Shown here one piece after another: positions 5,190 to 47,398 of a stretch of 64,000 bases of DNA. Both the position numbers and the translations under genes were made by a program. The stretch covers positions 106 to 64,105 of the forward strand of contig CBDAVT010000001.1 in NCBI GenBank assembly GCA_965201145.1, in the 5' to 3' direction. This DNA comes from Dehalococcoidia bacterium (lineage in GTDB: Bacteria; Chloroflexota; Dehalococcoidia; Lucifugimonadales; UBA3495). Positions within the stretch are counted from its first letter, which is position 1. Every line of letters starts with the position of its first letter. Under the pieces are notes generated by a model. The model made no database searches, was not told where the DNA came from, and saw nothing but the letters and a program-made list of their open reading frames with translations.

Positions 5190-7790
5190 ATGCCGGATGT
5201 GATTCCGCTGAAGCTTGGCATTAGAAACTTCCTTTCCTATCGGGAGAATGTTCCAACGCTGGACCTAACCGGGGTGCACGTCGCCTGTCTTTGCGGCGAC
5301 AACGGGCACGGCAAGTCTGCGCTGCTGGACGCCATTAGCTGGTGCCTGTGGGGGCAAGCGCGCGGGAAGACCCATGACGACCTGATTTCTTATGGGGCCG
5401 ATGAAGCTCGGGTGGAGTTGGAATTTCTGGCGCGTAACAGCCGCTTCCGGGCCATTCGCAGTCGCCGCCGGGCTGGGGGCCGCCGCCGTCAGGGAGCCAG
5501 CGACTTGCAACTCCAGGCTTTGGGGGAGGCCGGCTCCGTCAGTCAGATAATAACCGGCAACTCGGTACGGGAAACCCAGGGAAAAATCGAACTCCTGGTA
5601 GGAATGGACTACGACACCTTCATCAATTCAGCCTTTCTGCTCCAGGGACGGGCCGATGAGTTCACCAACAAGACGCCGGCCGACCGCAAGGCGGTGCTTT
5701 CGGCAATCCTCGGCCTGGCCGCCTATGACCGATTTCAGACCCGGGCCCGAGAAAGAGCCGGAGAAATGCGCAGCGAGGTTGACCTACAGGCTGGCACCCT
5801 GCAGCGCATTGAGGAAGACATCAACAATATCGGAGACCCGGCGGCCGAGCTGACCGCCGTCAATCGAAAGTTGGCTGAGGTGGAAAGCCAATGGGAGCAG
5901 CAGCGGAAAGCCGTTGAAGAGCTGCGAGAAAAAGTAAGCCACCACCGGCGCATCGAGTCCCAACTGACCCAACAGCGGGCTCAAATCGAGGGGAACCAAC
6001 AGGAGCTTAACCGAATCGAGGCCGACATCCGGGCAACTCAAGCCCAAATCGACCAGCTCCAAAATCTCCTCGCTAAATCCGAAGAAATCGAAAAAGGTCT
6101 CGCTGAGTTGGAACGAGCCCGACGGCAGTTCGCCGACCTGGAAGCGGCCCGCCAGCAATACAATGCCCGGCGGGAAGAGATTAGCGAGGCGACCCGCAGC
6201 ATTGAGGTGGAAAAGGCTCGGCTTGACTCGGAAGTAAAGCAGTTGGGCCACAAAGTCCGAACTGAGTTGACACCCCGGGCCGAATCAAGCCCGACCATTT
6301 TGGCCGAATTGGAAGAAACGCGGCAAAAGATAGCCGAGCTGACCGGAAAGGAAAAAGGGATAGCGGCTGACCGCAGCCGACTCCAGACTCTGGCCGAACT
6401 GGTCGGCGAAGCCCAGTCAGTTGCTATCCGCTGCGAGGAGGAGGGGAAGCAAATCAAGGAAAAGCTGGACTTGCTCCACGGCGCTGCCTCCCACACCGCG
6501 TTATGTCCTCTCTGCCAAACTCCACTGAGCGAGGACGGACACCGCCGGCTGTCAGCAGCCTACCAGGAGGAAATTCAGGAGAAACGGGCGCTTTACCGCA
6601 ATAATCGGGACTACCTGAAAAACCTGGAAAGGGAAAAGGGTGAACTGGAAAAGGAACTGCCCCGGCAAGAACAAGCGCTAACTCGCGCGGCTAACGAGCT
6701 AAAGGCGCATGCGATTAGGCTGGAAGAGCATTTGCGGACTTCCGAATCGGCAAGGGTCGAACTGGAGCAAGTTGAAGGTCAACGGCAAGTCCTGGTGGTT
6801 AAACTGCAAAGCGGCAGTTTTGCCGAGCCGGCCCAAGCCAAGCTAGCCGCCGCCGAAAGGGGGTTGGCCGATCTGGCCTACGACGAGGCAGCCTTTCAGG
6901 AGACCGTCCAGAGCATCCGGGAATTTGAGCCTTATAATCAGCTGAAAGCCCGGCTGGACCAGGCCGCAATCCAGTTGCCCCGGGACCAGCAGTCCATCTC
7001 ACAGAACCGGGAAACGCTGGCAAGACGGCAGGAAGAGTTGGAAATTCTGCAAAGTCAGGTCCGGGAAGCGGAAACCACTCTGGCCGAGCTGCCTGGACTG
7101 GAAGCGCGATTGAGTGAAGCGTCGGCAGCCCTTTCCTTGCTGGAGCAGGACCGACAGGACCTGCTGGCCCGGCGAGGCTTTATCGAGGGCGAGGTTAATC
7201 GTCTAGGCAGCTTGCGCACGGAAGCGGCAGAACGCCGGGCCCGGCTATCGGCAACCCGGGAAGACCAGAGCATATATCAGGAATTGGCGAACGCTTTTGG
7301 CCGCCAGGGGATTCAGGCCATGCTCATCGAAACGGTAGTTCCCCGGCTGGAAGAAGAAGCCAATCAGCTGCTGGGCCGCATGACCGACAGCCGGATGCAC
7401 GTCAAGCTGGAGACCCAGCGCGAGCGCCGTTCCGGCTCCGGGGAGCCGATCGAGACCCTGGAGATAAATGTCAGCGACGAAATGGGCGCCCGCAGTTACG
7501 AGATGTACAGCGGCGGTGAAGCTTTCCGGGTTAACCTGGCGCTGCGCATCGCCCTGTCCCGGGTGCTGTCCCAGCGCACGGGAGCGCCGCTGCCGACCCT
7601 GTTCATCGACGAAGGCTTCGGCACCCAGGACGCTTCGGGACGGGAGCGCATCCTGGACGTAATCAGCGCCATTGAGAACGACTTTGACAAGATAATTGTC
7701 ATCACCCACCTGGATGACTTGAAGGATATGTTCCCGGTTCGCATCGAAGTACGGAAGGAAGCCAGCGGCTCCACCTTCTGGTTGAGTTGA
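5190..7790 (+). CDS. sbcC: SbcC/Rad50 SMC-family ATPase
   Basis: Walker A GDNGHGKS, Q-loop LLQG, coiled coil with CPLC zinc hook, signature YSGGE, Walker B FIDEGFG, ITH motif. Confidence 0.92.
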   Translation: MPDVIPLKLGIRNFLSYRENVPTLDLTGVHVACLCGDNGHGKSALLDAISWCLWGQARGKTHDDLISYGADEARVELEFLARNSRFRAIRSRRRAGGRRRQGASDLQLQALGEAGSVSQIITGNSVRETQGKIELLVGMDYDTFINSAFLLQGRADEFTNKTPADRKAVLSAILGLAAYDRFQTRARERAGEMRSEVDLQAGTLQRIEEDINNIGDPAAELTAVNRKLAEVESQWEQQRKAVEELREKVSHHRRIESQLTQQRAQIEGNQQELNRIEADIRATQAQIDQLQNLLAKSEEIEKGLAELERARRQFADLEAARQQYNARREEISEATRSIEVEKARLDSEVKQLGHKVRTELTPRAESSPTILAELEETRQKIAELTGKEKGIAADRSRLQTLAELVGEAQSVAIRCEEEGKQIKEKLDLLHGAASHTALCPLCQTPLSEDGHRRLSAAYQEEIQEKRALYRNNRDYLKNLEREKGELEKELPRQEQALTRAANELKAHAIRLEEHLRTSESARVELEQVEGQRQVLVVKLQSGSFAEPAQAKLAAAERGLADLAYDEAAFQETVQSIREFEPYNQLKARLDQAAIQLPRDQQSISQNRETLARRQEELEILQSQVREAETTLAELPGLEARLSEASAALSLLEQDRQDLLARRGFIEGEVNRLGSLRTEAAERRARLSATREDQSIYQELANAFGRQGIQAMLIETVVPRLEEEANQLLGRMTDSRMHVKLETQRERRSGSGEPIETLEINVSDEMGARSYEMYSGGEAFRVNLALRIALSRVLSQRTGAPLPTLFIDEGFGTQDASGRERILDVISAIENDFDKIIVITHLDDLKDMFPVRIEVRKEASGSTFWLS

Positions 7791-7824: not shown

Positions 7825-8247
7825 ATGCTGGACGATAATCTCAAGAGATTTGTGGCCGAAAACCGGCGGGGGGTGCTGACTACCTTCCGGCGAGATGGCT
7901 CGGCTCAGATGAGCATCATCACCTGCGGCCCGCTGCAGGACGGAGTGGCCTTCACCACCACCGAAGACCGGGCCAAACTGAAGAATCTGCGCCGCAATTC
8001 CCGGTGTTCCTTAATGGTGGCCCGGGAAAACTGGGCGGCCTATATCGTGCTGCAGGGTTCCGCGCGGCTGCTTTCGGCCGCCAATACCGACGCCGAGGAA
8101 CTGCGGCTAACTCTGCGGGATGTTTACCGCACTGCAGCCGCAACCGAACATCCTGACTGGGATGAGTACGATCAGGCCATGGCGGCGCAGGGAAGGTCGG
8201 CGATAATCGTTGTGCCGGAACACATCTACGGCGGCAACGTTTCCTGA
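7825..8247 (+). CDS. PPOX-class (pyridoxamine 5'-phosphate oxidase-like) probable F420-dependent oxidoreductase
   Basis: GVLTTFRRDGS...KLKNLRRNSRCSL, typical of the split-barrel F420 enzymes. Confidence 0.8.
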   Translation: MLDDNLKRFVAENRRGVLTTFRRDGSAQMSIITCGPLQDGVAFTTTEDRAKLKNLRRNSRCSLMVARENWAAYIVLQGSARLLSAANTDAEELRLTLRDVYRTAAATEHPDWDEYDQAMAAQGRSAIIVVPEHIYGGNVS

Positions 8248-8595: not shown

Positions 8596-9216
8596 TCACT
8601 CGGGCCACTTCCACTGGAAAGCGGCATAGTGACCGTTCTTGCCGGAGTTGTCCCAGACCATTCCGTGGTCAGTGTAGGTGCTGTTAGTACCTTCCGCCAG
8701 GGCTAACGAAGAACTGACCGGGTGTCCGGTGTTTTCCAGCCGCATGGCTTCGGCGCGACGCCCAACAACCAGCCCCTGGACGTTGAAGTCGATGATGCCG
8801 GGAATCTGTATGCTGCGCCGGTGGCCTTCGGCAGTGTAGGTTATCGAACAGTATTTGATGCCCAGGTAGTTGGTCGTCAGCCGCATCCACCGTTCGGAAG
8901 GGCCGCCGATTTCACCGGACAGAATTCGGCTCAGGGCCGCCCGCTGAAAATGGTCGGCCCGGTCGTCAATATAATTAGCCAGAGTCCAGTCGCCTTCGCC
9001 CATATTGCCCGGGGTATAGGCCACGACCAAAAAGTTCAAGTCATCCAGCGCAACACCTTTGTAGTCACCTTCCTGAATGTGAAAGGCGAAGGCTACATCG
9101 CAGTGCCCTTCGGTGGGTACTGCCGGGCCGCCCCGGACGATGCAGGGACAGAGGATTTCGCAATTACAGTTCTCAAAATAGTCTCCCCGGAGGGACCAGC
9201 GTTCTTCCCCGGTCAT
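8596..9216 (-). CDS. DUF1326-family cysteine-rich putative metal-binding protein
   Basis: WSLRGDYFENCNCEILCPC...PTEGHC; YIDDRA...QRAAL. Confidence 0.82.
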   Translation of the reverse strand: MTGEERWSLRGDYFENCNCEILCPCIVRGGPAVPTEGHCDVAFAFHIQEGDYKGVALDDLNFLVVAYTPGNMGEGDWTLANYIDDRADHFQRAALSRILSGEIGGPSERWMRLTTNYLGIKYCSITYTAEGHRRSIQIPGIIDFNVQGLVVGRRAEAMRLENTGHPVSSSLALAEGTNSTYTDHGMVWDNSGKNGHYAAFQWKWPE

Positions 9217-9332
9217 CTTTACTCACCCCCCTCAAGCAGCTTGGCTCAAGAAACTCACCCCTGCTACCTTTATGGGCGCAGGGGTGGTGTTCTGTGGTGC
9301 AGCCGGCCGAACCCGGCTGTTGCCGGGCCGAC

Positions 9333-11381
9333 TTAGCTACCGGCATACGGCTGAATCAGCACCCGCAATGTGCCGTCGTTTTCCTTGCGTTGCGTAAGCA
9401 GCCTATGCCCGGCCTGCTCCGCCCAGTAAATAACGTCGTAGATGTTGAGGGCATCGTGCAGGATGGCTTCAACAAAGGAGCCCCGGTCATCGTCCATCTG
9501 CCGACTGAGCGCAGCGATAACACCGGCGCAGTTCTTGCCTCTCCCGTCAACGATGGCCCAACCGCCATTGTGCCCATTGCCATTGGCCCCGACCGGCTGA
9601 CGGTGCACGTCAATCTGACCGGACTTGCGCAGGTCCAACTGCTCCTTAAAGTGGGCTACGGCTTCCCAGGCCACGGCCCGGTCTCGTTCGCCGCTGGAGC
9701 AGACTGCGCCCCGGACACCGACTATGTCGGGATTTACCCGGGCCAATTCGTCCAGATTATCCAGCTTCAGGTGGCCGGACAGGGCGGTACTCATCCCCGC
9801 CTGCTTGGCCTCCATAACCATTTCCCGCAGTCTAGCTTCGGGAATAAAGTCGAAGAGGTTCCGTCCATCCTTGGTCAGGGTATCAATCAGGAACCCGTCG
9901 CACTGCCCCTCAATAGCCAGCTTGACCATCAAGTCCGGGTCCAGACCGCCCTTGAACAGGTGGTTGTCGGCGAAGAGGGAGCCAATCAGCTTGGTATCGT
10001 AACCCTGCAAAGCTGCCCGGGCGCCCTGGAGTATTTCCACCGCCGTCGCGTAATCGGCTTCGCAGAACCCTACCTTGACCGACGTTGCGTCCAGCATACC
10101 GGCAGCGCGCACCGCCATCGCCACGGTGCCAGCCTGATTCGGGACCACGCCCAGAGTAACGCTGACGTGCTTGTGGGCGGGAATGCGCTGGCGCACTTCC
10201 TCCACCAGCTTGGGATGACCGGAACCGACCAATGCCTCCTGCAGGTTCTTGACGTCAATAATGTCCGCTCCGCCCCGGTCAGCCTCCAAAGCTTCGGCCA
10301 TGTCCTGGACGCTGACCAGCAGCATCATCCCGGAATCCGAGGCTCCGCTGCCGTGACTGCCATTAAGCCATGGCGCATGAACTCGGGGCTGCGCCGGGAC
10401 GGTCACAGCCGGCGGTCGGGGAATCAGAGGTGTCAATTCCCGCTTGAGTTCGGCCTTTTCCCCTTCGGTCAGCGGCATTAAGGGCGGACGGACGTGCCCA
10501 CCGGCCATACCCATCAATTCCCCCCAGTACTTGCACATGGGAGCCGGCAGAGCTCCGCCGGACTTCTTGACCGTACCACCCCACCATTTGTCGGAAAGAG
10601 CCTTGATGTCCTTCAAATGCTTATTGTAAAACTCCAGGTCCAGGTCGCCCCGGCTAGCCCGATTAATGAACTGGACATAGTAATTGCACTTCGGGGTATC
10701 GAAGCGCCAGTCGGAGGTATTGGCGAACATTACCTGCTGGTGGAAACCCAGTTCTTTAGCTTTGGGATAAATCCACTCATCCGGGGTACTGATAATGGAC
10801 TGCTTTCCCACCAGCAGGTGCGTCTCAATGGAAATCTGCTGGTTGAAACTGGCCTCTTTGACCCCAACCACGTTGGGAATCTGGCAGAGCCGCTTCAAGC
10901 CCTGGGGACTCATTACCATCCCGAACTGGGGAGAATTGTAGAACATTATAGCCAGGTTAGTATGATCAGCCAGGGTCTTGACGTAGTCGTAAACCACATC
11001 TTCAGTCTTGGCGACCATGTAGGGGGAGGCGACTACCAGCAAGTCAAAGCCGTCAGCCTCGGCCCGGTCGGCCAGAGCCAGCATATCGCCAACCGAGGTG
11101 TGGGTAACGTGGGCGGCAATGCCCCAGCGACCGGCGGCTTCCTCGGCCACAATGTCCATCACGCGGGTGCGCTCTTCGAAGGTCAAACTCCAGAACTCGC
11201 CCATACCCCAGGTGCAGCCGCCACCCCGGGTCCCCAGGCTGCGCATATAGCCGATGTTGCGGCGAAGGCCGGCCTCATCAACCCGATTATCCGGCGTGAA
11301 CGGGGTCATAATAGTAGTCCACTGGTCTTTCAGAAACCCCCACGCCCATTCCTGTGCCTCATGCTTGCTATAATCAGCCAT
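9333..11381 (-). CDS. Triple fusion: DapA/DHDPS-family aldolase + MfnB (DUF556)-like synthase + TusA/SirA-like domain
   Basis: aa ~1-320: TPF, GMGEF, YNSP, GVKEAS. aa ~352-585: MMLLVSV...GGADIIDVKN, VKVG, IDTLTKDG, ALSG, DIVGVRGAVC. aa ~608-682: VDGRGKNC...D...DVIYWAEQAGH. Confidence 0.85.
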   Translation of the reverse strand: MADYSKHEAQEWAWGFLKDQWTTIMTPFTPDNRVDEAGLRRNIGYMRSLGTRGGGCTWGMGEFWSLTFEERTRVMDIVAEEAAGRWGIAAHVTHTSVGDMLALADRAEADGFDLLVVASPYMVAKTEDVVYDYVKTLADHTNLAIMFYNSPQFGMVMSPQGLKRLCQIPNVVGVKEASFNQQISIETHLLVGKQSIISTPDEWIYPKAKELGFHQQVMFANTSDWRFDTPKCNYYVQFINRASRGDLDLEFYNKHLKDIKALSDKWWGGTVKKSGGALPAPMCKYWGELMGMAGGHVRPPLMPLTEGEKAELKRELTPLIPRPPAVTVPAQPRVHAPWLNGSHGSGASDSGMMLLVSVQDMAEALEADRGGADIIDVKNLQEALVGSGHPKLVEEVRQRIPAHKHVSVTLGVVPNQAGTVAMAVRAAGMLDATSVKVGFCEADYATAVEILQGARAALQGYDTKLIGSLFADNHLFKGGLDPDLMVKLAIEGQCDGFLIDTLTKDGRNLFDFIPEARLREMVMEAKQAGMSTALSGHLKLDNLDELARVNPDIVGVRGAVCSSGERDRAVAWEAVAHFKEQLDLRKSGQIDVHRQPVGANGNGHNGGWAIVDGRGKNCAGVIAALSRQMDDDRGSFVEAILHDALNIYDVIYWAEQAGHRLLTQRKENDGTLRVLIQPYAGS

Positions 11382-11529
11382 TAATCATCACCTTCCGAAA
11401 ATAGTTAATGAACGAGAGGCTTCTAGCCAACAGTAACGGTCCGACCCGGCTAACGAGCAGGCTTTTGCGGACTCCGGTTGCAGCGCCCGGCAAGCGGGGG
11501 CGCAATTTCGCTGCCAAGTCATTAATTCC

Positions 11530-11558
11530 ATTGTAAGCAACCTATATTCAAGCGTCAA
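11530..11558 (-). promoter_or_regulatory. Sigma70-type promoter of the fusion gene
   Basis: Minus strand TTGACG-N17-TACAAT, about 140 nt upstream of the ATG at 11381. Confidence 0.7.
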
Positions 11559-11749
11559 CCTTGACATTCAGAGCCGAAGGGAACATCGATACACCAGGCA
11601 AATTCATCACCGCGGCGTAAGGGCGAAGCCGGTTTTGAGTAGCAAGTTGCCCGGTACGGAATTAAATTAGCGCCTGAATCCGGGAGGTACATCGGCAATG
11701 GACGCCGGGTTTGTGTCTCGATTCGACCGGGTGCGACGGAATTCCGCCA

Positions 11750-12562
11750 CTAGGCTGCCGGTTGGCAGGCGGGACAAAGATAGGTAGTCCGTCCCCGCAC
11801 CCGGATCGAAACAATATTCGCAGCACACCGTAGGCAAGGTTCGCCTTCCTTGCGCGGGATGGTCCAGGTATGCAGAGCCGAGGGCGGGTCCGGCCACTGC
11901 TCCTCGCGGGCCCGGTCATACCGGGAAATGGCGGCCTTCAGTATCTTTACGATATTGTCCCGCAAATTGGAAACCTCTGCCAGGGACAGGCTACCCGCCC
12001 GGCGCTCCGGGTGGATGCCGGTGTAGTAAAGAGATTCGTCCACATACAGATTGCCCAGGCCAGCAACCACGGACTGCTCCAACAGCAGCGCTTTTATCGG
12101 GGCATTGCGGTTATCGAGCTTTTGCGCCAGCCTTTCGACGGTAAAGTCGGCGGACAGCGGCTCCGGCCCCAGGGCCGGCAGGGTTTCGTCGAGATTATCG
12201 GTAAGCCACAAGTGGCCGAATTTGCGCGGGTCCCGGAACCACAGAGTCCTTGCGTCATCCAGAAGGAAGGTGTGCCGCACCATCAAGTCTCGGTCCCGGG
12301 AGGCGGATTGTACGCTCAGTCCCCCAGTCATACCCAGGTGAATTATGAAAGTCTCCCCGGTATCCAGCGGCAGCAGCAGATATTTGCCCCGGCGCCCTAC
12401 GTCTTCCACTCGCTTTGACGGGAGACCCAAAAGGAAGTCTTCCAGGGCGGGCTGCCTGACGGTAGCGGCCCAACCCACCTGGACATCCGTAATGGTTCGG
12501 CCCGGCAGCCCGGCGCGCAAAAGGATACGCCGGGCATTTTCTACTTCCGGGAGTTCAGGCAT
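11750..12562 (-). CDS. mutM: Formamidopyrimidine-DNA glycosylase (Fpg)
   Basis: MPELPEVE, RRGKYL, HLGMTG, DPRKFG, GLGNLYVDE, C-terminal zinc finger. Confidence 0.96.
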   Translation of the reverse strand: MPELPEVENARRILLRAGLPGRTITDVQVGWAATVRQPALEDFLLGLPSKRVEDVGRRGKYLLLPLDTGETFIIHLGMTGGLSVQSASRDRDLMVRHTFLLDDARTLWFRDPRKFGHLWLTDNLDETLPALGPEPLSADFTVERLAQKLDNRNAPIKALLLEQSVVAGLGNLYVDESLYYTGIHPERRAGSLSLAEVSNLRDNIVKILKAAISRYDRAREEQWPDPPSALHTWTIPRKEGEPCLRCAANIVSIRVRGRTTYLCPACQPAA

Positions 12563-12621
12563 CGGTCAGCTAAACCTCGCCTTCGTGAAAAATGTTGCGG
12601 GAGCATAATGCGCCGGTCTGG

Positions 12622-15600
12622 CTACACCCGCTTGACCGCCAGAGTAACTTCCATACCTTCAATCTTCTGGGTTTCGCTGCCCTCGGCGTCCGGCAGCGGG
12701 CCGGCCACCAGTTGCTCGCTCAGCGTCTCCTGAATGATGTAATCGGCGTGGCTCTGCATTACCCGGGCCACTTCCGCCGGCCCCTGGTAGTAGGTAACTA
12801 TACGGTCGGTCAGGTCAAACTGGGCGCTGCGTCTGAGCCCCTGAATACGATGCGCCAGTTCTCGCGCCAGACCTTCCTCCGCCAACTCCGGGGATACCCG
12901 GGTGTCGATCGCCACCAGGCAGCCGGGCTCCACCGAAACCCAGTAATTGTCAACCTGCTGGATGCCATGCCCCGAGAACTCTCCCTTGCCGCTGGCCTGG
13001 GTCAGATCCCGGACTGCGTCATGGTAGCTTTGCGCTTCGTCCCTGAAATCTTCCATTACGGTCAACTGCTTTATGTTCAACTCTTCCAGGATTTGCGACC
13101 GGACCTGTCTGAGCCGTTCCGCCGGGCCCCAGACCTTGACCTCGGCCAGGGGCTGCCGCACTTTAACTCCGGCGCGGGAACGGGCGGCCCGGCCCATACT
13201 GGAAACCTGCATCGCCAGCCGGGTAGCTGCCATCAAATCCCGGTCAATCAGGGCCGGGTCAGGCTGGGGATAACTGTCCAGATGGACGCTGTCCGGAGCG
13301 GAGGGATCCACCGCGCAAACCAGGTTCTGGTAGATTTCCTCGGCCATGAAGGGAGCCAGGGGCGCCATCAAGCGAGCCACCGTTACCAGGCAGCGATAGA
13401 GGGCAGCATAGGCCGAAAGCTTGTCCGTATCATTTTCGCTCTTCCAGAAACGGCGTCGGCTGCGGCGCACATACCAGTTCGAAAGCTGGTCGATAAACTG
13501 CTGGAGCCGGCGCCCCGAGTCGGTGGGGTTGTAGGCGTCCATATAGCCATCCACCTGCTCGATCAGGACGTTCAACTCGGCAAGAATCCAGCGATCCAGT
13601 TCGTTTTCCGGCTGCCAGTCTTCGGGAACCTGGTCGGGATGGAATCGGTCAATGCTGGCGTAGTTGGTGAAGAAGGAATAGACATTCCACAAGGTGAGCA
13701 GGACCCGCCGCAGGGTCTCGTTGACCAGCTTGTCCGAGAAGCGGCGCGGTTCCCCGGAATGGGAAGCGGTGTAGAGATACCAGCGCAGGGCGTCGGCGCC
13801 GTGGCTGTCCAGCACCTCACTGGGGGCAACCACATTGCCACGGCTCTTGCTCATTTTTTGGCCCCGGCTGTCCAGAATCAGGCCCAGGCAGATGACATTG
13901 CGGTAGGAAGGTTCCCCCTTCAGCAAGGTCGCCAGGGCGTGCAGGCTGTAGAACCAGCCTCGGGTTTGGTCCACCGCCTCGCAGATGTAGTCGGCGGGGA
14001 ATCGACCATCTTCGGCAATTTTGGAGTTGTCGAAGGGATAGTGCCATTGGGCAAAGGGCATCGCCCCGGAATCAAACCAGGCATCCATCACCTCGGGAAT
14101 GCGGTACATACTGCCAGCGCAATTTTCCCGGGGACACCGCAGGACTACTTCATCGACATAGGGACGGTGCAGGTCCAGGCTGTCCAGGTTCGAGTGGTCG
14201 CCGGAATCCGCTTTTTCCTTCAGCTCGGCCAGACTGCCAATGCAAATTCGATGGCTGCAAGCCGCGCACTGCCAGATGGGGATCGGGGTGCCCCAGTAAC
14301 GTTCCCTGGAAATGGCCCAGTCCACGTTATTGCGGAGCCACTCGCCAAAGCGACCTTCCCGGATATAGTCGGGGTACCAGTTAATCGAACTGTTGCCTTC
14401 CACCAGGCGGTCCTTGTGGGCCGTAGTGCGGATATACCAGGAAGACTTGGCGTAGTAGAGCAAGGGGGTATCACAGCGCCAGCAGAAGGGGTAGGTATGC
14501 CGGTAAATGTCCCGGTGATGCAGCAGACCCCGGTCAGCCAGGTCCTGCATGATGTCCTCGTCCGCAGTCTTTACGAACTTGCCGGCGAAAGGATAATCGC
14601 CGGTTACTTCGCCGCGGAGATTCACCGACTGAACAAAGGACAGCTCCTTTTCCCGGCCCAAACCCAGGTCTTCATCACCGAAGGCGGGGGCAATGTGGAC
14701 AATGCCGGTGCCGTCTGCCATGGAAACGAAATCGCCGGAAACAACCCGGGGCGAGAAATCGGCATCCGCGACCAACTCGGTAACGGCAGTTCCACTCGGG
14801 CCGGCACGCCGCACAAAACGGCGGATGTCGGCGCCGTACTCAGCGGGAGGATACAGCGGCGCATACCCGGTTCCAATCAAGGCCGAACCCTTAAAGGAGT
14901 TAACTGTCGCATACTCTTCCCGGAGGTTGGGTTCCAGAAGCTGAGTGGCGAGAATCAACCGCTCCTTCCGGCCCTCCCGAACCAGTTCCACCTGGGAATA
15001 ATCGGCGTCGGCATCTACGGCCAGCGCAGTGTTGCCGGGCAGCGTCCAGGGGGTGGTAGTCCACGCCAATAAATAAGTCGGCACGTCGGCTTCGACAGCC
15101 AAACCCTGGGCCGGCTCAGTAATCCTGAATTTGACGAAAACCGAAGGGTCCGGCGTATCTTCCTGGTAGCCCAACGCTACTTCGTGGGAACTGAGGCTGG
15201 TTTCGCAGCGGGGACAATGGGGAGTGCCGCGCAATCCTTCATAAAGCAGGCCGTCGTCCCAAAGCTGCTTCAGAATCCACCAGCCGGTTTCGATGAAATC
15301 GTTGTGCAGGGTAACGTAAGGGTCATCCATATCAACCCAGAATCCGATGCGGTCGGTGAGGACTTCCCAATCCTTGACGTAACGAAAAACGCTTTCCTTG
15401 CATTTCTGGTTGAATTTCTCGATACCGTATTCTTCAATCTCCCGCTTGGAACTGAGTCCCAGTTCTTTCTCTATCTCCAGTTCCACCGGGAGGCCGTGGG
15501 TATCCCAACCGCCCTTGCGCAGGCAGCGATAGCCTTTCATGGTTCGATAGCGGCAGATTACGTCCTTGAAGACTCGGGCCAGGACGTGGTGGATTCCGGG

Positions 15601-15768: not shown

Positions 15769-15881
15769 ACCTCTGCTGGGAAGTGGATTTAAGGAGCATT
15801 ATACCGCAAACCGCAGAAAGCGGGATTTGACCACTAAAGACCGGCGGAATCGGTCAGCGACTGTATTTGCTTCCATCCGTG

Positions 15882-16682
15882 TCAACTCCATAACCGCCAG
15901 AAATGGTGCACCGGGCCGTGCCCCTGGCCCAGGGGATAAGAATTGCGGATGGCCTCGGTAACGTATTCTTTGGCCTGATCCACGGCTTCGGGAACCGACT
16001 TTCCCTGGGCCAGGCCGGCGGCCGCCGCCGAAGCAAAGGTGCAGCCGGTGCCGTGGGTGTTGACCGTATCGAAGCGCTCCGCCGAAAACTCAACAAACTC
16101 GGACCCGTCGTAGAGCAGGTCGGTAGCTGGCCCGGCCCGGTGGCCGCCCTTGACCACCACCGCTCCGGCGCCCATGGCTAAAATACGTTCCGCCGCCGCC
16201 CGCATATCCGCATCGCTTTCGAGGGTCAGGCCGGTTAAAGTTTCCGCCTCAGGGACGTTGGGAGTCACCAGAGCCGCCAGAGGAATCAATTGCCTCCGCA
16301 CCGAATCCACCGCATCCTGCCGCAGCAGCGAATCGCCGCTCTTGGCTACCATCACCGGATCTACCACCAGCCGATCAATGTCGTGGCGTCGCACCGCACC
16401 AGCGACAGCTTCCACGATGGCCGCGCTGGAAAGCATCCCGGTCTTAACCGCATCAACCCCGATGTCGGAGACCACCGCATCTATCTGGGCAACGATAATG
16501 TCAATGGGCAGCTCGTGAACCGCAGCAACCGCCACGGTATTTTGCGCGGTTATGGCAGTCAGAGTTGAAGCTCCGTAAACGCCCAGCGCCGAAAAGGTTT
16601 TAAGGTCGGCCTGTATGCCGGCGCCGCCGCCGGAATCGGAGCCGGCGATGGTCATTGCTACCGGCGTTTTTCTTGTATTCAT
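15882..16682 (-). CDS. thiD: Hydroxymethylpyrimidine/phosphomethylpyrimidine kinase
   Basis: [35 protein letters not shown]. Confidence 0.95.
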
Positions 16683-46118: not shown

Positions 46119-47162
46119 TTATCCGGCTACGGCCAGCTTCAAGCCATCTACATAGGGCGGGCGAACTACTGCGTTTTCGGTAACGATTGCGCTGATATAA
46201 CGATGGGGCGTAACGTCAAAGGCCGGATTCAGAGCATCCACCCCGGACGGCGCGGTGGATACACCCTGAATTTGGGTAACTTCCACGCCGGGTCGCTCTT
46301 CAATCTGAATTTCTTCGCCCGATTCCAGACTCAGGTCAACGGTGCTGGTGGGCGCGGCGATATAGAAGGGTATTCCATTCTCCCGGGCCAAGACGGCCAA
46401 AGCATAGGTGCCAATCTTGTTGGCCGTATCGCCATTGGCCGCAATACGGTCAGCGCCGGTTATGACACAGCTTATCTCACCCCGCTGCATCAGCAGCCCA
46501 GCCGCCGAATCCACAATCAGGGTAGCGGGAATACCCAACTGCTGAAACTCCCAGGAGGTCAGCCGGGCGCCCTGCAGAAAAGGCCGAGTCTCGGTATTGA
46601 AAACCTTGAACCGCCGGCCCGCTTCCCAGCCGGCTCGTATAACGCCCAGGGCAGTGCCGAAAGCCGAAGTAGCCAATGCGCCCGTATTGCAGTGGGTCAG
46701 CACCGCTCCGCCGTCAGGCATCAATGTCTTGCCAAAATCTCCCATGCGGCGGTTAATTTCCTCGTCTTCCTCCTGAATGCGCCTGGCCTCAATCAGCAGC
46801 CGTTCCCGGGCGCCTGCCGGAGTCGCTTCCGCCTCGGCCACGGCCAGCATCCGGCTCACGGCCCATTGCAGGTTAACCGCCGTAGGCCGAGCGGCGTTAA
46901 TCACCGCCGCCGCTTCCCGAAGGTCGGCCAAAAAGGACTCTGCGTCATTGGCTGCCGACTCCGCCGCCGCCATAACCACGGCGTAGGCCGCCGTTACGCC
47001 AATGGCGGGAGCGCCCCGAACCTGCATACTCCGAATCGCGTCCACGGCGCCGCGGTAGTCAGCCAACTCGACGACCAGCTCCTCGGCCGGAAGCCGGGTC
47101 TGGTCCAAAAGTTTCAGAATACCGTCCGCCCACCGGATGGGACGTATTTCGTTTACGGTCAA
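46119..47162 (-). CDS. mtnA: Methylthioribose-1-phosphate isomerase
   Basis: LDQT, VRGAPAIG, RPTAVNL, THCNTG, ETRP, ANKIGTY. Confidence 0.96.
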   Translation of the reverse strand: MTVNEIRPIRWADGILKLLDQTRLPAEELVVELADYRGAVDAIRSMQVRGAPAIGVTAAYAVVMAAAESAANDAESFLADLREAAAVINAARPTAVNLQWAVSRMLAVAEAEATPAGARERLLIEARRIQEEDEEINRRMGDFGKTLMPDGGAVLTHCNTGALATSAFGTALGVIRAGWEAGRRFKVFNTETRPFLQGARLTSWEFQQLGIPATLIVDSAAGLLMQRGEISCVITGADRIAANGDTANKIGTYALAVLARENGIPFYIAAPTSTVDLSLESGEEIQIEERPGVEVTQIQGVSTAPSGVDALNPAFDVTPHRYISAIVTENAVVRPPYVDGLKLAVAG

Positions 47163-47212: not shown

Positions 47213-47230
47213 ACACTTTTTTCGCGGCTC

Positions 47231-47354
47231 CCTCATCTTTCCTCTACCCCACATACCGGGGAGAAGCCGGATTTAGCACCTTGCCCCAAGGTTCCACCAC
47301 CGGGGCCGGTTGCTTGGCTTCATCGGGCCGTTCCCTCTGCCTTTCTGGATAAGG
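47231..47354 (-). ncRNA. SAM-I (S-box) riboswitch
   Basis: Minus strand CUUAUC-CAGAAAGGCAGAGGGAACGGCCCGAUGAAGCC-AAGCAACC...GGUGCUAAAUCC...GAAAGAUGAG; P1 CUUAUC/GAUGAG; upstream of SAM-cycle genes. Confidence 0.93.
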
Positions 47355-47398
47355 GTTCCAGATATAGTATTCTCTTTTTAAGCTATCAGGTGAGGGTT

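Follow-up and report, generated by a model that had tools for sequence, protein, structure and literature searches.

A 64,000-nucleotide stretch of the genome of a Dehalococcoidia bacterium (assembly GCA_965201145.1, contig CBDAVT010000001.1), referred to below as the window, carries on its minus strand at positions 9333-11381 a gene for a three-domain protein in which a barrel of the DHDPS family (T1), a barrel of the MfnB family (T2) and a domain with the TusA fold (T3) follow one another. In this gene a conserved system of two or three genes, characteristic of one Chloroflexota order, is fused into a single reading frame, and comparative evidence ties the system to menaquinone biosynthesis, namely its mutual exclusion with the early futalosine (Mqn) genes, its co-occurrence with MqnL, and its embedding in late menaquinone operons. 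Just two ways of making the menaquinone ring have, to our knowledge, been described, the classical Men pathway and the futalosine pathway. The system is a possible core of an undescribed ring route, because the genomes that carry it keep the late menaquinone genes while the known ring routes are missing. Judged from sequence comparison, the proposal that it supplies the menaquinone head group and so replaces MqnA, MqnE, MqnC and MqnD stands, in our estimate, evenly balanced between right and wrong.

Throughout, the system means T1, T2 and T3 together, either fused or encoded by adjacent genes, and f-, G- and L-numbers are our labels for families, genomes and loci, the genome of the window being G000 and its family f1. 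All presence counts are based on a sample of 201 genomes of the window genome's order (SAR202-type Chloroflexota). We found the system in 126 of these genomes and in 62 of 102 genera, with a presence per family that is nearly all-or-none; at least 12 genomes carry an uninterrupted full-length fusion, most others having adjacent genes. Across a phylum-wide sample of 401 genomes, the whole system was found in the window genome alone. Homology searches detected 503 homologues, the best 120 of which are all 660-776 aa in length, at least 68% identical and equipped with the same Pfam pair or triple, their source names, where available, being Chloroflexi or UPF0264/DHDPS. Clustering at 50% identity yielded essentially one full-length cluster plus the split forms T1 (~330 aa) and T2T3 (~330 aa). 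A profile search with T3 returned 138 matches, and the 120 listed were solely fragments or bore Dehalococcoidia names, while a search of the Atlas gave Chloroflexota clusters and MfnB clusters only. Judged by cluster names, neither T1 nor T3 had an archaeal match. This is a single conserved enzyme system, far beyond what chance association would produce.

For comparison with the known early route, we defined a canonical futalosine set as two strong matches to PF02621 (the MqnA/MqnD family) together with MqnC at 410 bits or more. PF02621 was matched in 42 of the 201 genomes and twice strongly in 30, and MqnC reached its threshold in exactly the same 30. The overlap between these Mqn genomes and the 126 genomes with the system is zero. 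A UbiD-family decarboxylase was present in 167 genomes, among them all 30 Mqn genomes and 123 of the 126 with the system, which thus occurs in only 3 of the 34 genomes that lack UbiD. A further 14 genomes possess UbiD but neither early route, and 31 have none of the three.

That these decarboxylases include the menaquinone enzyme itself is indicated by the equivalog model for MqnL (TIGR03701, cut-off 495.9 bits), which scored 602-640 bits in the genome of the window, in G411, G422 and G419, in two Mqn genomes and in G404 of genus f87; the cut-off was passed in 4 of 4 system-bearing genomes checked. In the genome of the window the late genes form an MqnL-MqnP-like-UbiX-MenG operon on contig C2 at ~600.7-604.7 kb, with scores above cut-off for MqnL (639.8 versus 495.9), UbiX (193.8 versus 188) and MenG/UbiE (206.5 versus 158), whereas the UbiA-family prenyltransferase fits the MqnP_DT model best but at 284 bits remains under its cut-off of 430. 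The MqnL of this genome shares 66-71% identity with its counterparts in six Mqn-positive families (f96, f100, f119, f125, f131 and f141), and 39-44% with the divergent f2 type alone.

The known early genes are missing from the genomes with the system that were searched. MenB and MenD of the classical route passed their cut-offs in none of five near-complete genomes, and MqnE in none of G411, G422, G439 and G000, a Mqn-positive control being matched; the best MqnE match of G000 (310 bits versus 434.55) is CofH-like. MqnC was likewise not found in the genome of the window, where the best match (341 bits versus 428) is again CofH-like. In system-bearing families other than f1 we obtained no PF02621 match, save in the metagenome-assembled genomes (MAGs) G456 and G583. 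The f1 family keeps, in 8 of 8 genomes, one diverged MqnA-like PF02621 gene without MqnC, MqnD or MqnE. In the genome of the window this gene lies on contig C2 at 1868190-1869056 (L002:1486-2352, minus strand) next to a MetF-like gene, and its product shares 38% identity with the MqnA of a Mqn-positive relative, which has two PF02621 proteins, and matches the solved chorismate dehydratase MqnA with an E-value of 3e-24; by sequence the gene looks like a remnant of a displaced pathway or a re-used copy. With the late futalosine-type enzymes present and the early routes missing, the genomes with the system are left without a known source of the late-enzyme substrate.

The genomic surroundings were surveyed in 40 loci from different genera, with clustered open reading frames (ORFs) and counts expressed per 41 loci. 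In two families the genes of the system lie within a late-menaquinone operon: locus L135 reads, on one strand, MqnL(UbiD)-MqnP(UbiA)-UbiX-T1-T2T3-MenG, and locus L006 reads MqnL-MqnP-UbiX-fusion-luciferase-like monooxygenase. At L025 the same late genes (MqnL, MqnP and UbiX) are convergent with T2 and T1. Over all 72 system-bearing genomes listed with both genes on one contig, the distance from the system to the best UbiD gene was at most 25 kb in 46, representing 21 of 29 families. Lineages with split genes share a conserved block that starts with aconitase, HemA, FakA, DegV and RecG, continues with T1, T2T3, a 96-aa ORF and YtxH, followed by PheA, TrkA and TrkH, and ends with an epimerase, a cytidylyltransferase-like gene, UbiD and UbiA; this block consists mostly of housekeeping genes.

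Some smaller features accompany these loci. The ~96-aa ORF, which has no Pfam family (L017:8450-8740, minus strand; ORF cluster 9), is found behind T2T3, in the same orientation, at 12 of 41 loci, and a YtxH-like gene usually comes next. Directly after the L006 fusion lie two luciferase-like (PF00296) genes, L006:11054-11926 (plus strand) and 12011-12943 (minus strand), and a similar gene, L137:9-560 (minus strand), stands ~0.9 kb from UbiX; these monooxygenases may also belong to the pathway. After the MenG operon of the window's own genome (contig C2) there are two leucine-rich-repeat proteins, L133:14374-15846 and 15867-16640 (both plus strand), whose only NCBIfam similarity, far under the cut-offs, is to the repeat regions in models for Xop proteins and internalins.

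We used a tree of 48 MqnL sequences (31 from genomes with the system, 14 from Mqn genomes and 3 from genomes with neither) to ask how often the two states have changed. Twenty-four lineages with the system fall in one supported clade, and the lineages f1, f91, f102, f106, f110 and f122, which also carry it, are interleaved with Mqn lineages. Mapping the states on this tree gives 4-5 changes, at least 3 of which are forced by supported branches, and an approximately unbiased test rejects a single clade of system-bearing lineages (p = 0.007).

The gene itself is a single uninterrupted 682-aa ORF that begins with ATG, preceded by an AAGGTGA-like ribosome-binding site 7-8 nt 5' of the start codon. 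Its features, and those next to it, are as follows.

9333..11381, minus strand: whole gene for the three-domain protein T1-T2-T3 (682-aa ORF, Pfam and homologues)
10431..11318, minus strand: T1, DHDPS-family (beta/alpha)8 barrel, residues 22-317 (Pfam PF00701 and alignment to 3flu)
10857-10859, minus strand: Schiff-base Lys175 of T1 (alignment to 3flu)
10938-10940, minus strand: Tyr148 of T1, YN motif (alignment to 3flu)
10323..10430, minus strand: linker 1, Pro/Gly-rich, residues 318-353 (poorly conserved and of low predicted confidence)
9648..10322, minus strand: T2, MfnB-like (4HFCP_synth) barrel, residues 354-578 (PF04476 and alignment to MJ1099)
10248-10250, minus strand: Lys378 of T2, equivalent to Lys27 of MJ1099 (alignment to MJ1099)
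9351..9560, minus strand: T3, TusA-fold domain, residues 608-677 (sub-threshold PF01206 match, structure prediction and Foldseek)
9528-9530, minus strand: invariant Cys618 of T3 at the N-terminus of helix 1 (structure prediction and alignments)
11530..11558, minus strand: candidate sigma-70-like promoter, TTGACG-17-TACAAT, ~150 nt 5' of the start codon (consensus match only)
8596..9216, minus strand: DUF1326 gene (Pfam PF07040), downstream on the same strand and outside the conserved system

The promoter consensus was matched once where 1.3 matches would be expected by chance. Pfam assigns residues 22-317 to DHDPS (PF00701; 107.9 bits, E = 5.3e-31) and residues 354-578 to 4HFCP_synth (PF04476; 179.1 bits versus a gathering score of 22.4, E = 1.5e-52), the latter over profile positions 1-227 of 228. 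TusA (PF01206) is matched at residues 610-677 with 24.1 bits (E = 3.3e-5), under its gathering score of 28.6. A full-length AlphaFold2 (AF2) model built on 62 homologues shows three folded domains (mean predicted local distance difference test score, pLDDT, 78.5; predicted template modelling score 0.50) joined by low-confidence disordered linkers at residues 325-350 (pLDDT below 50) and 595-606. T3 modelled alone reached a pLDDT of 89.1 with the order beta-alpha-beta-alpha-beta-beta, and Foldseek placed it close to E. coli TusA (3lvj_C; template modelling scores on query and target, TMq/TMt, 0.77/0.78), to the SirA-like 3hz7 (0.80/0.85) and to YeeD (TMq 0.80), all with weak E-values above 0.001.

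The motifs of T1 are found at residues 57 (TWGMGEF), 148 (YNSP) and 174 (VKEAS), and those of T2 at 374 (IIDVKN, in which Asp376 and Lys378 correspond to MJ1099 D25 and K27), 379 (NLQEALVG), 435 (VKVG) and 500 (DTLTKDG), while T3 bears DGRGKNCAG at 612. Lys175, Tyr148, Lys378 and Cys618 do not vary in an alignment of homologues (62/62 for each); Cys618 is invariant also in two other alignments (41/41 and 22/22) and in all 24 locus translations listed. Across homologues the T3 motif reads DG(R/T)GxxC(A)(G/S), with C-A-G-V/I where TusA has CPxP. In four RNA-library runs, all belonging to the same study, assembled contigs span the ORF with 0 differences. The original prediction, made from the letters of the DNA, had described one 682-aa ORF of three linked domains, with these motifs and catalytic residues in place and no stop codon between the domains, and had proposed a TusA-like domain with the cysteine (Cys618) retained; the observation is confirmed throughout, the domain structure by Pfam and AF2 (the TusA match being sub-threshold), the motifs at their given positions, the open frame by the RNA-library contigs and by the uninterrupted matches in other genomes, and the fold and its cysteine by AF2, Foldseek and the alignments.

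In one of the RNA-library runs (X1) a 2670-nt contig over positions 9296-11965, which takes in the gene together with the spacer 5' of it, has a depth of 42.9 versus 5-7.5 for the flanking contigs. This ~6-8-fold difference is suggestive of transcription, as a hint and not as proof: contig depth cannot rank genes, RNA libraries can hold DNA, and we used the contigs only to look for stops and variants.

From these elements a mechanism can be put forward, although it is speculative. The MfnB-type site of T2 should, by its conserved residues, still bind a triose phosphate, so that T2 might still start from glyceraldehyde-3-phosphate or dihydroxyacetone phosphate and would make a reactive C6 aldehyde phosphate, either 4-(hydroxymethyl)-2-furancarboxaldehyde phosphate (4-HFC-P) or a relative. 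T1, which lacks the residues for aspartate semialdehyde, would add a 2-oxo-acid enamine to this aldehyde intermediate, and Cys618 may tether an intermediate or carry sulfur between the two barrels. The product would most likely be a carboxylated quinol head group, be it 1,4-dihydroxy-6-naphthoate, a precursor of it or a near analogue, which MqnP (prenyltransferase), MqnL/UbiX (decarboxylase) and MenG (methyltransferase) would then complete. The fuller claim, of a third head-group route that needs no radical-SAM (S-adenosylmethionine) enzyme, draws on sugar-phosphate and 2-oxo-acid metabolites and has displaced MqnA, MqnE, MqnC and MqnD several times within the order, is offered tentatively, and we lean slightly against it as a whole.

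The interpretation offered by the original prediction, a repurposed channelling enzyme for an unknown cofactor, is partly supported: the idea was right, and the evidence redirects it to menaquinone biosynthesis. Nothing was found that points to the thiophene or thio-sugar product or to the sulfur transfer that it also envisaged, and a cysteine desulfurase or sulfur-relay gene was nowhere a conserved neighbour of the system in the 41-locus survey.

Several observations weigh against a role in head-group supply. In the genome of the window the gene is on contig C1 and the menaquinone operon on contig C2, and the 7-12 kb that separate the system from MqnL are, at most loci, filled with unrelated housekeeping genes (PheA, the Trk genes and the epimerase). 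In genus f87, five near-complete genomes (G404, G461, G496, G524 and G548; locus L128) possess MqnL, an MqnP-like gene and UbiX, and a search of all five found neither the system nor an MfnB-like gene (PF04476), PF02621, MqnC or MenB, from which it follows that the late genes can occur without either early route. Two fragmented MAGs with the system, G456 and G583, carry parts of a Mqn cluster on small contigs. The independent contrasts are few, 3 if supported branches are counted and 5 if all are, and a sign test is uninformative because so few independent pairs cannot reach significance; moreover, the MqnL gene tree serves as a stand-in for the species tree. Finally, no convincing carbon-by-carbon route from triose phosphates to 1,4-dihydroxy-6-naphthoate could be derived.

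Some of these points would also fit a different role, in which the system makes another furan-derived or sulfur-bearing metabolite or cofactor, in line with the original prediction, and its link to menaquinone is an accident of shared ancestry and synteny. T2 keeps all the catalytic residues of MfnB, so a furan aldehyde phosphate is the simplest product to expect from it, and T3 adds a sulfur-carrier fold with an invariant cysteine; the proximity to MqnL is mostly due to the housekeeping synteny block, the independent contrasts are few, and genus f87 has the late genes without the system. Such a role would, however, leave unexplained the zero overlap with MqnA, MqnC and MqnD in 201 genomes, the rarity of the system without UbiD (3 of 34 genomes) and its insertion between UbiX and MenG at L135 and after UbiX at L006, and it would leave the late menaquinone enzymes of these genomes without a source of substrate. 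We regard it as unlikely, though a serious contender.

It is improbable that the system instead tailors the quinone, introducing sulfur or another substituent or creating a head group other than a naphthoquinone, with the ring precursor salvaged or made by unknown genes. Sulfur-containing quinones occur in other prokaryotes. The place between UbiX and MenG at L135 is where tailoring genes would be expected, a TusA-fold cysteine domain is at hand, and a luciferase-like monooxygenase follows the fusion at L006 and has a similar counterpart ~0.9 kb from UbiX at L137. Two aldolase-type barrels for small phosphorylated sugars are nevertheless ill-suited to a membrane-bound prenylquinone, and tailoring does not predict exclusion with MqnA, MqnC, MqnD and MqnE.

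Replacement of some other ring synthesis from sugar phosphates, be it an archaeal-type shikimate entry (DKFP/ADH-like) or vitamin B6 synthesis, is largely refuted and very unlikely. The idea has analogous chemistry in its favour, since class I aldolases can build rings from triose-derived C6 units and DHDPS makes N-heterocycles; in addition, PheA adjoins the system in 22 of 41 loci, and the window has ThiD and a PNPOx-like gene close by. ThiD and PNPOx are, however, no conserved neighbours. Among five genomes with the system, DAHP synthase and DHQ synthase were present in all five, which disposes of an alternative shikimate entry, and PdxS was present in four, which we take as rejecting an alternative pyridoxal phosphate synthase. 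A specialised PheA paralogue was also considered and rejected: in each of five genomes the adjacent PheA is the sole prephenate dehydratase gene and therefore the housekeeping copy. That the protein is an ordinary MfnB for methanofuran, fused by chance to neighbouring genes, is hardly credible despite a PF04476 score of 179 bits and ~40% identity to MJ1099, given equivalog scores of 179 and 166 bits versus cut-offs of 341 and 304, a 99.6%-complete genome in which Ftr (alone searched) is missing, and a fusion or adjacency with T1 and T3 that is kept in 126 genomes.

The immediate surroundings of the gene in the window belong to its own lineage. Its neighbours are a 1048-aa ORF, Fpg and the DUF1326 gene, and the 1048-aa ORF and Fpg recur in f1 relatives only. 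We considered functional links to ThiD, PNPOx, DUF1326, Fpg and Rad50 of the window and rejected them, as none of these adjoins the system in other families. Just downstream of the DUF1326 gene is an 866-aa Rad50/SbcC-like ATPase with a zinc hook (5190-7790, plus strand), after which comes the PNPOx-like protein (7825-8247, plus strand). Elsewhere in the window a SAM riboswitch (RF00162; 72.3 bits) at 47230-47355 on the minus strand lies 5' of a 347-aa ORF (46119-47162, minus strand).

Excerpts from a 2026 survey (PMC13386864) state that many Chloroflexota appear to be without any known quinone pathway, and that further quinones or pathways may remain to be discovered. Our literature search, judged largely by titles and abstracts, found no publication on this architecture or linking MfnB/UPF0264 with quinones, nor, among the titles listed, one on a new route, in agreement with the original prediction, which knew of no description either. 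What is new here is the strict alternation with MqnA, MqnC, MqnD and MqnE, the MqnL scores at equivalog level, the lack of Men genes and the evidence that there were several switches between the two states. If head-group supply by the system is true, it would explain the synthesis of the electron carrier in a very large group of respiring bacteria and would correct genome-based predictions that call these organisms quinone-free. It would also be a novel way of building an aromatic ring, with Schiff-base enzymes starting from sugar phosphates, and domains of the MfnB and TusA types would gain a role beyond methanogen cofactor synthesis and sulfur relay.

Compared with known systems, T1 shares with the class I aldolases of the DHDPS/NAL family (DapA, NanA, KdgD) its barrel, the Schiff-base lysine (VKEAS) and the tyrosine of YNxP. 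NahE-type hydratase-aldolases also belong to the PF00701 family. T1 differs from DHDPS (3flu) in that GTTGE is replaced by WGMGE with the loss of both threonines, PYY by PYM with the loss of the second tyrosine, and the arginine after YNxP by phenylalanine. In DHDPS this arginine binds the carboxylate of aspartate semialdehyde. Against every named DHDPS subfamily model T1 stays far under cut-off, the best scores being for KdgD (84 versus 278) and DapA (TIGR00674, 82.5 versus 206.15). Its closest outside relatives, which are 30-44% identical, come from other phyla. A profile of DHDPS-like proteins of 35-48% identity led to 80 loci, in Nitrospinota, Binatia, Alphaproteobacteria and others, of which 0 had a neighbour resembling MfnB or TusA, and we rejected these proteins as members of the system; they are paralogues, and their loci are uninformative about it.

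T2 aligns to MfnB MJ1099 (4rc1; PDB 4RC1, 4U9P) over chain residues 8-237 with an E-value of 2.8e-40 and keeps the Asp/Lys pair of IIDVKN, the lysine of VKVG, DTxxKDG and the GVRGA...R loop. D25, K27, K85 and D151 are catalytic residues of MJ1099. Together with Lys155 and Arg217 they are all identical in T2 and invariant in the 62 homologues. Excerpts of PMC11365854 assign a catalytic role to Lys155 and make Arg217 a likely binder of phosphate. Unlike MfnB, T2 has NLQEALVG in place of the loop NPKEGSLG, occurs in every case fused with T1 and T3 or next to them, and stands in a context of menaquinone genes instead of methanofuran genes. It is also under the cut-offs of the NCBIfam equivalog models for (5-formylfuran-3-yl)methyl phosphate synthase (NF002573, 179.2 versus 341; NF002575, 166.1 versus 304), and its host lacks Ftr. 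The genome of the window consists of 3 contigs, is 99.57% complete and contains PF04476 once, and a search of it for Ftr (PF01913, the formylmethanofuran:tetrahydromethanopterin formyltransferase), the one gene sought from among the mfn, fwd and related genes, gave no match while two methanogen controls were matched. On the missed equivalog cut-offs and the lack of Ftr we rejected a methanofuran role for the gene, as had been surmised from the sequence.

T3 has the two-layer alpha/beta fold of TusA, SirA and YeeD (3LVJ, 1DCJ, 3HZ7, 8K1R), with TMq of 0.77-0.80 and TMt of 0.75-0.85 for single-domain entries, and like TusA it places its cysteine at the N-terminus of helix 1. Differences from TusA lie in its Pfam score below the gathering score, in its DG(R/T)GxxC(A)(G/S) motif where TusA has CPxP, in being fused to the C-terminus of an aldolase, and in a conserved neighbourhood that holds no sulfur-relay partner.

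The nearest functional comparison is with the early futalosine pathway, which converts chorismate to 1,4-dihydroxy-6-naphthoate by means of a dehydratase with a periplasmic-binding-protein fold, two radical-SAM enzymes and MqnD. The system has no homology to these enzymes, consisting of two Schiff-base barrels and a cysteine domain, and its substrates are probably sugar phosphates where the futalosine pathway uses chorismate and SAM. Like that pathway, it occupies the same genomic niche in strict alternation between genomes, and it is proposed to feed the same late enzymes, MqnL, the MqnP-like prenyltransferase, UbiX and MenG.

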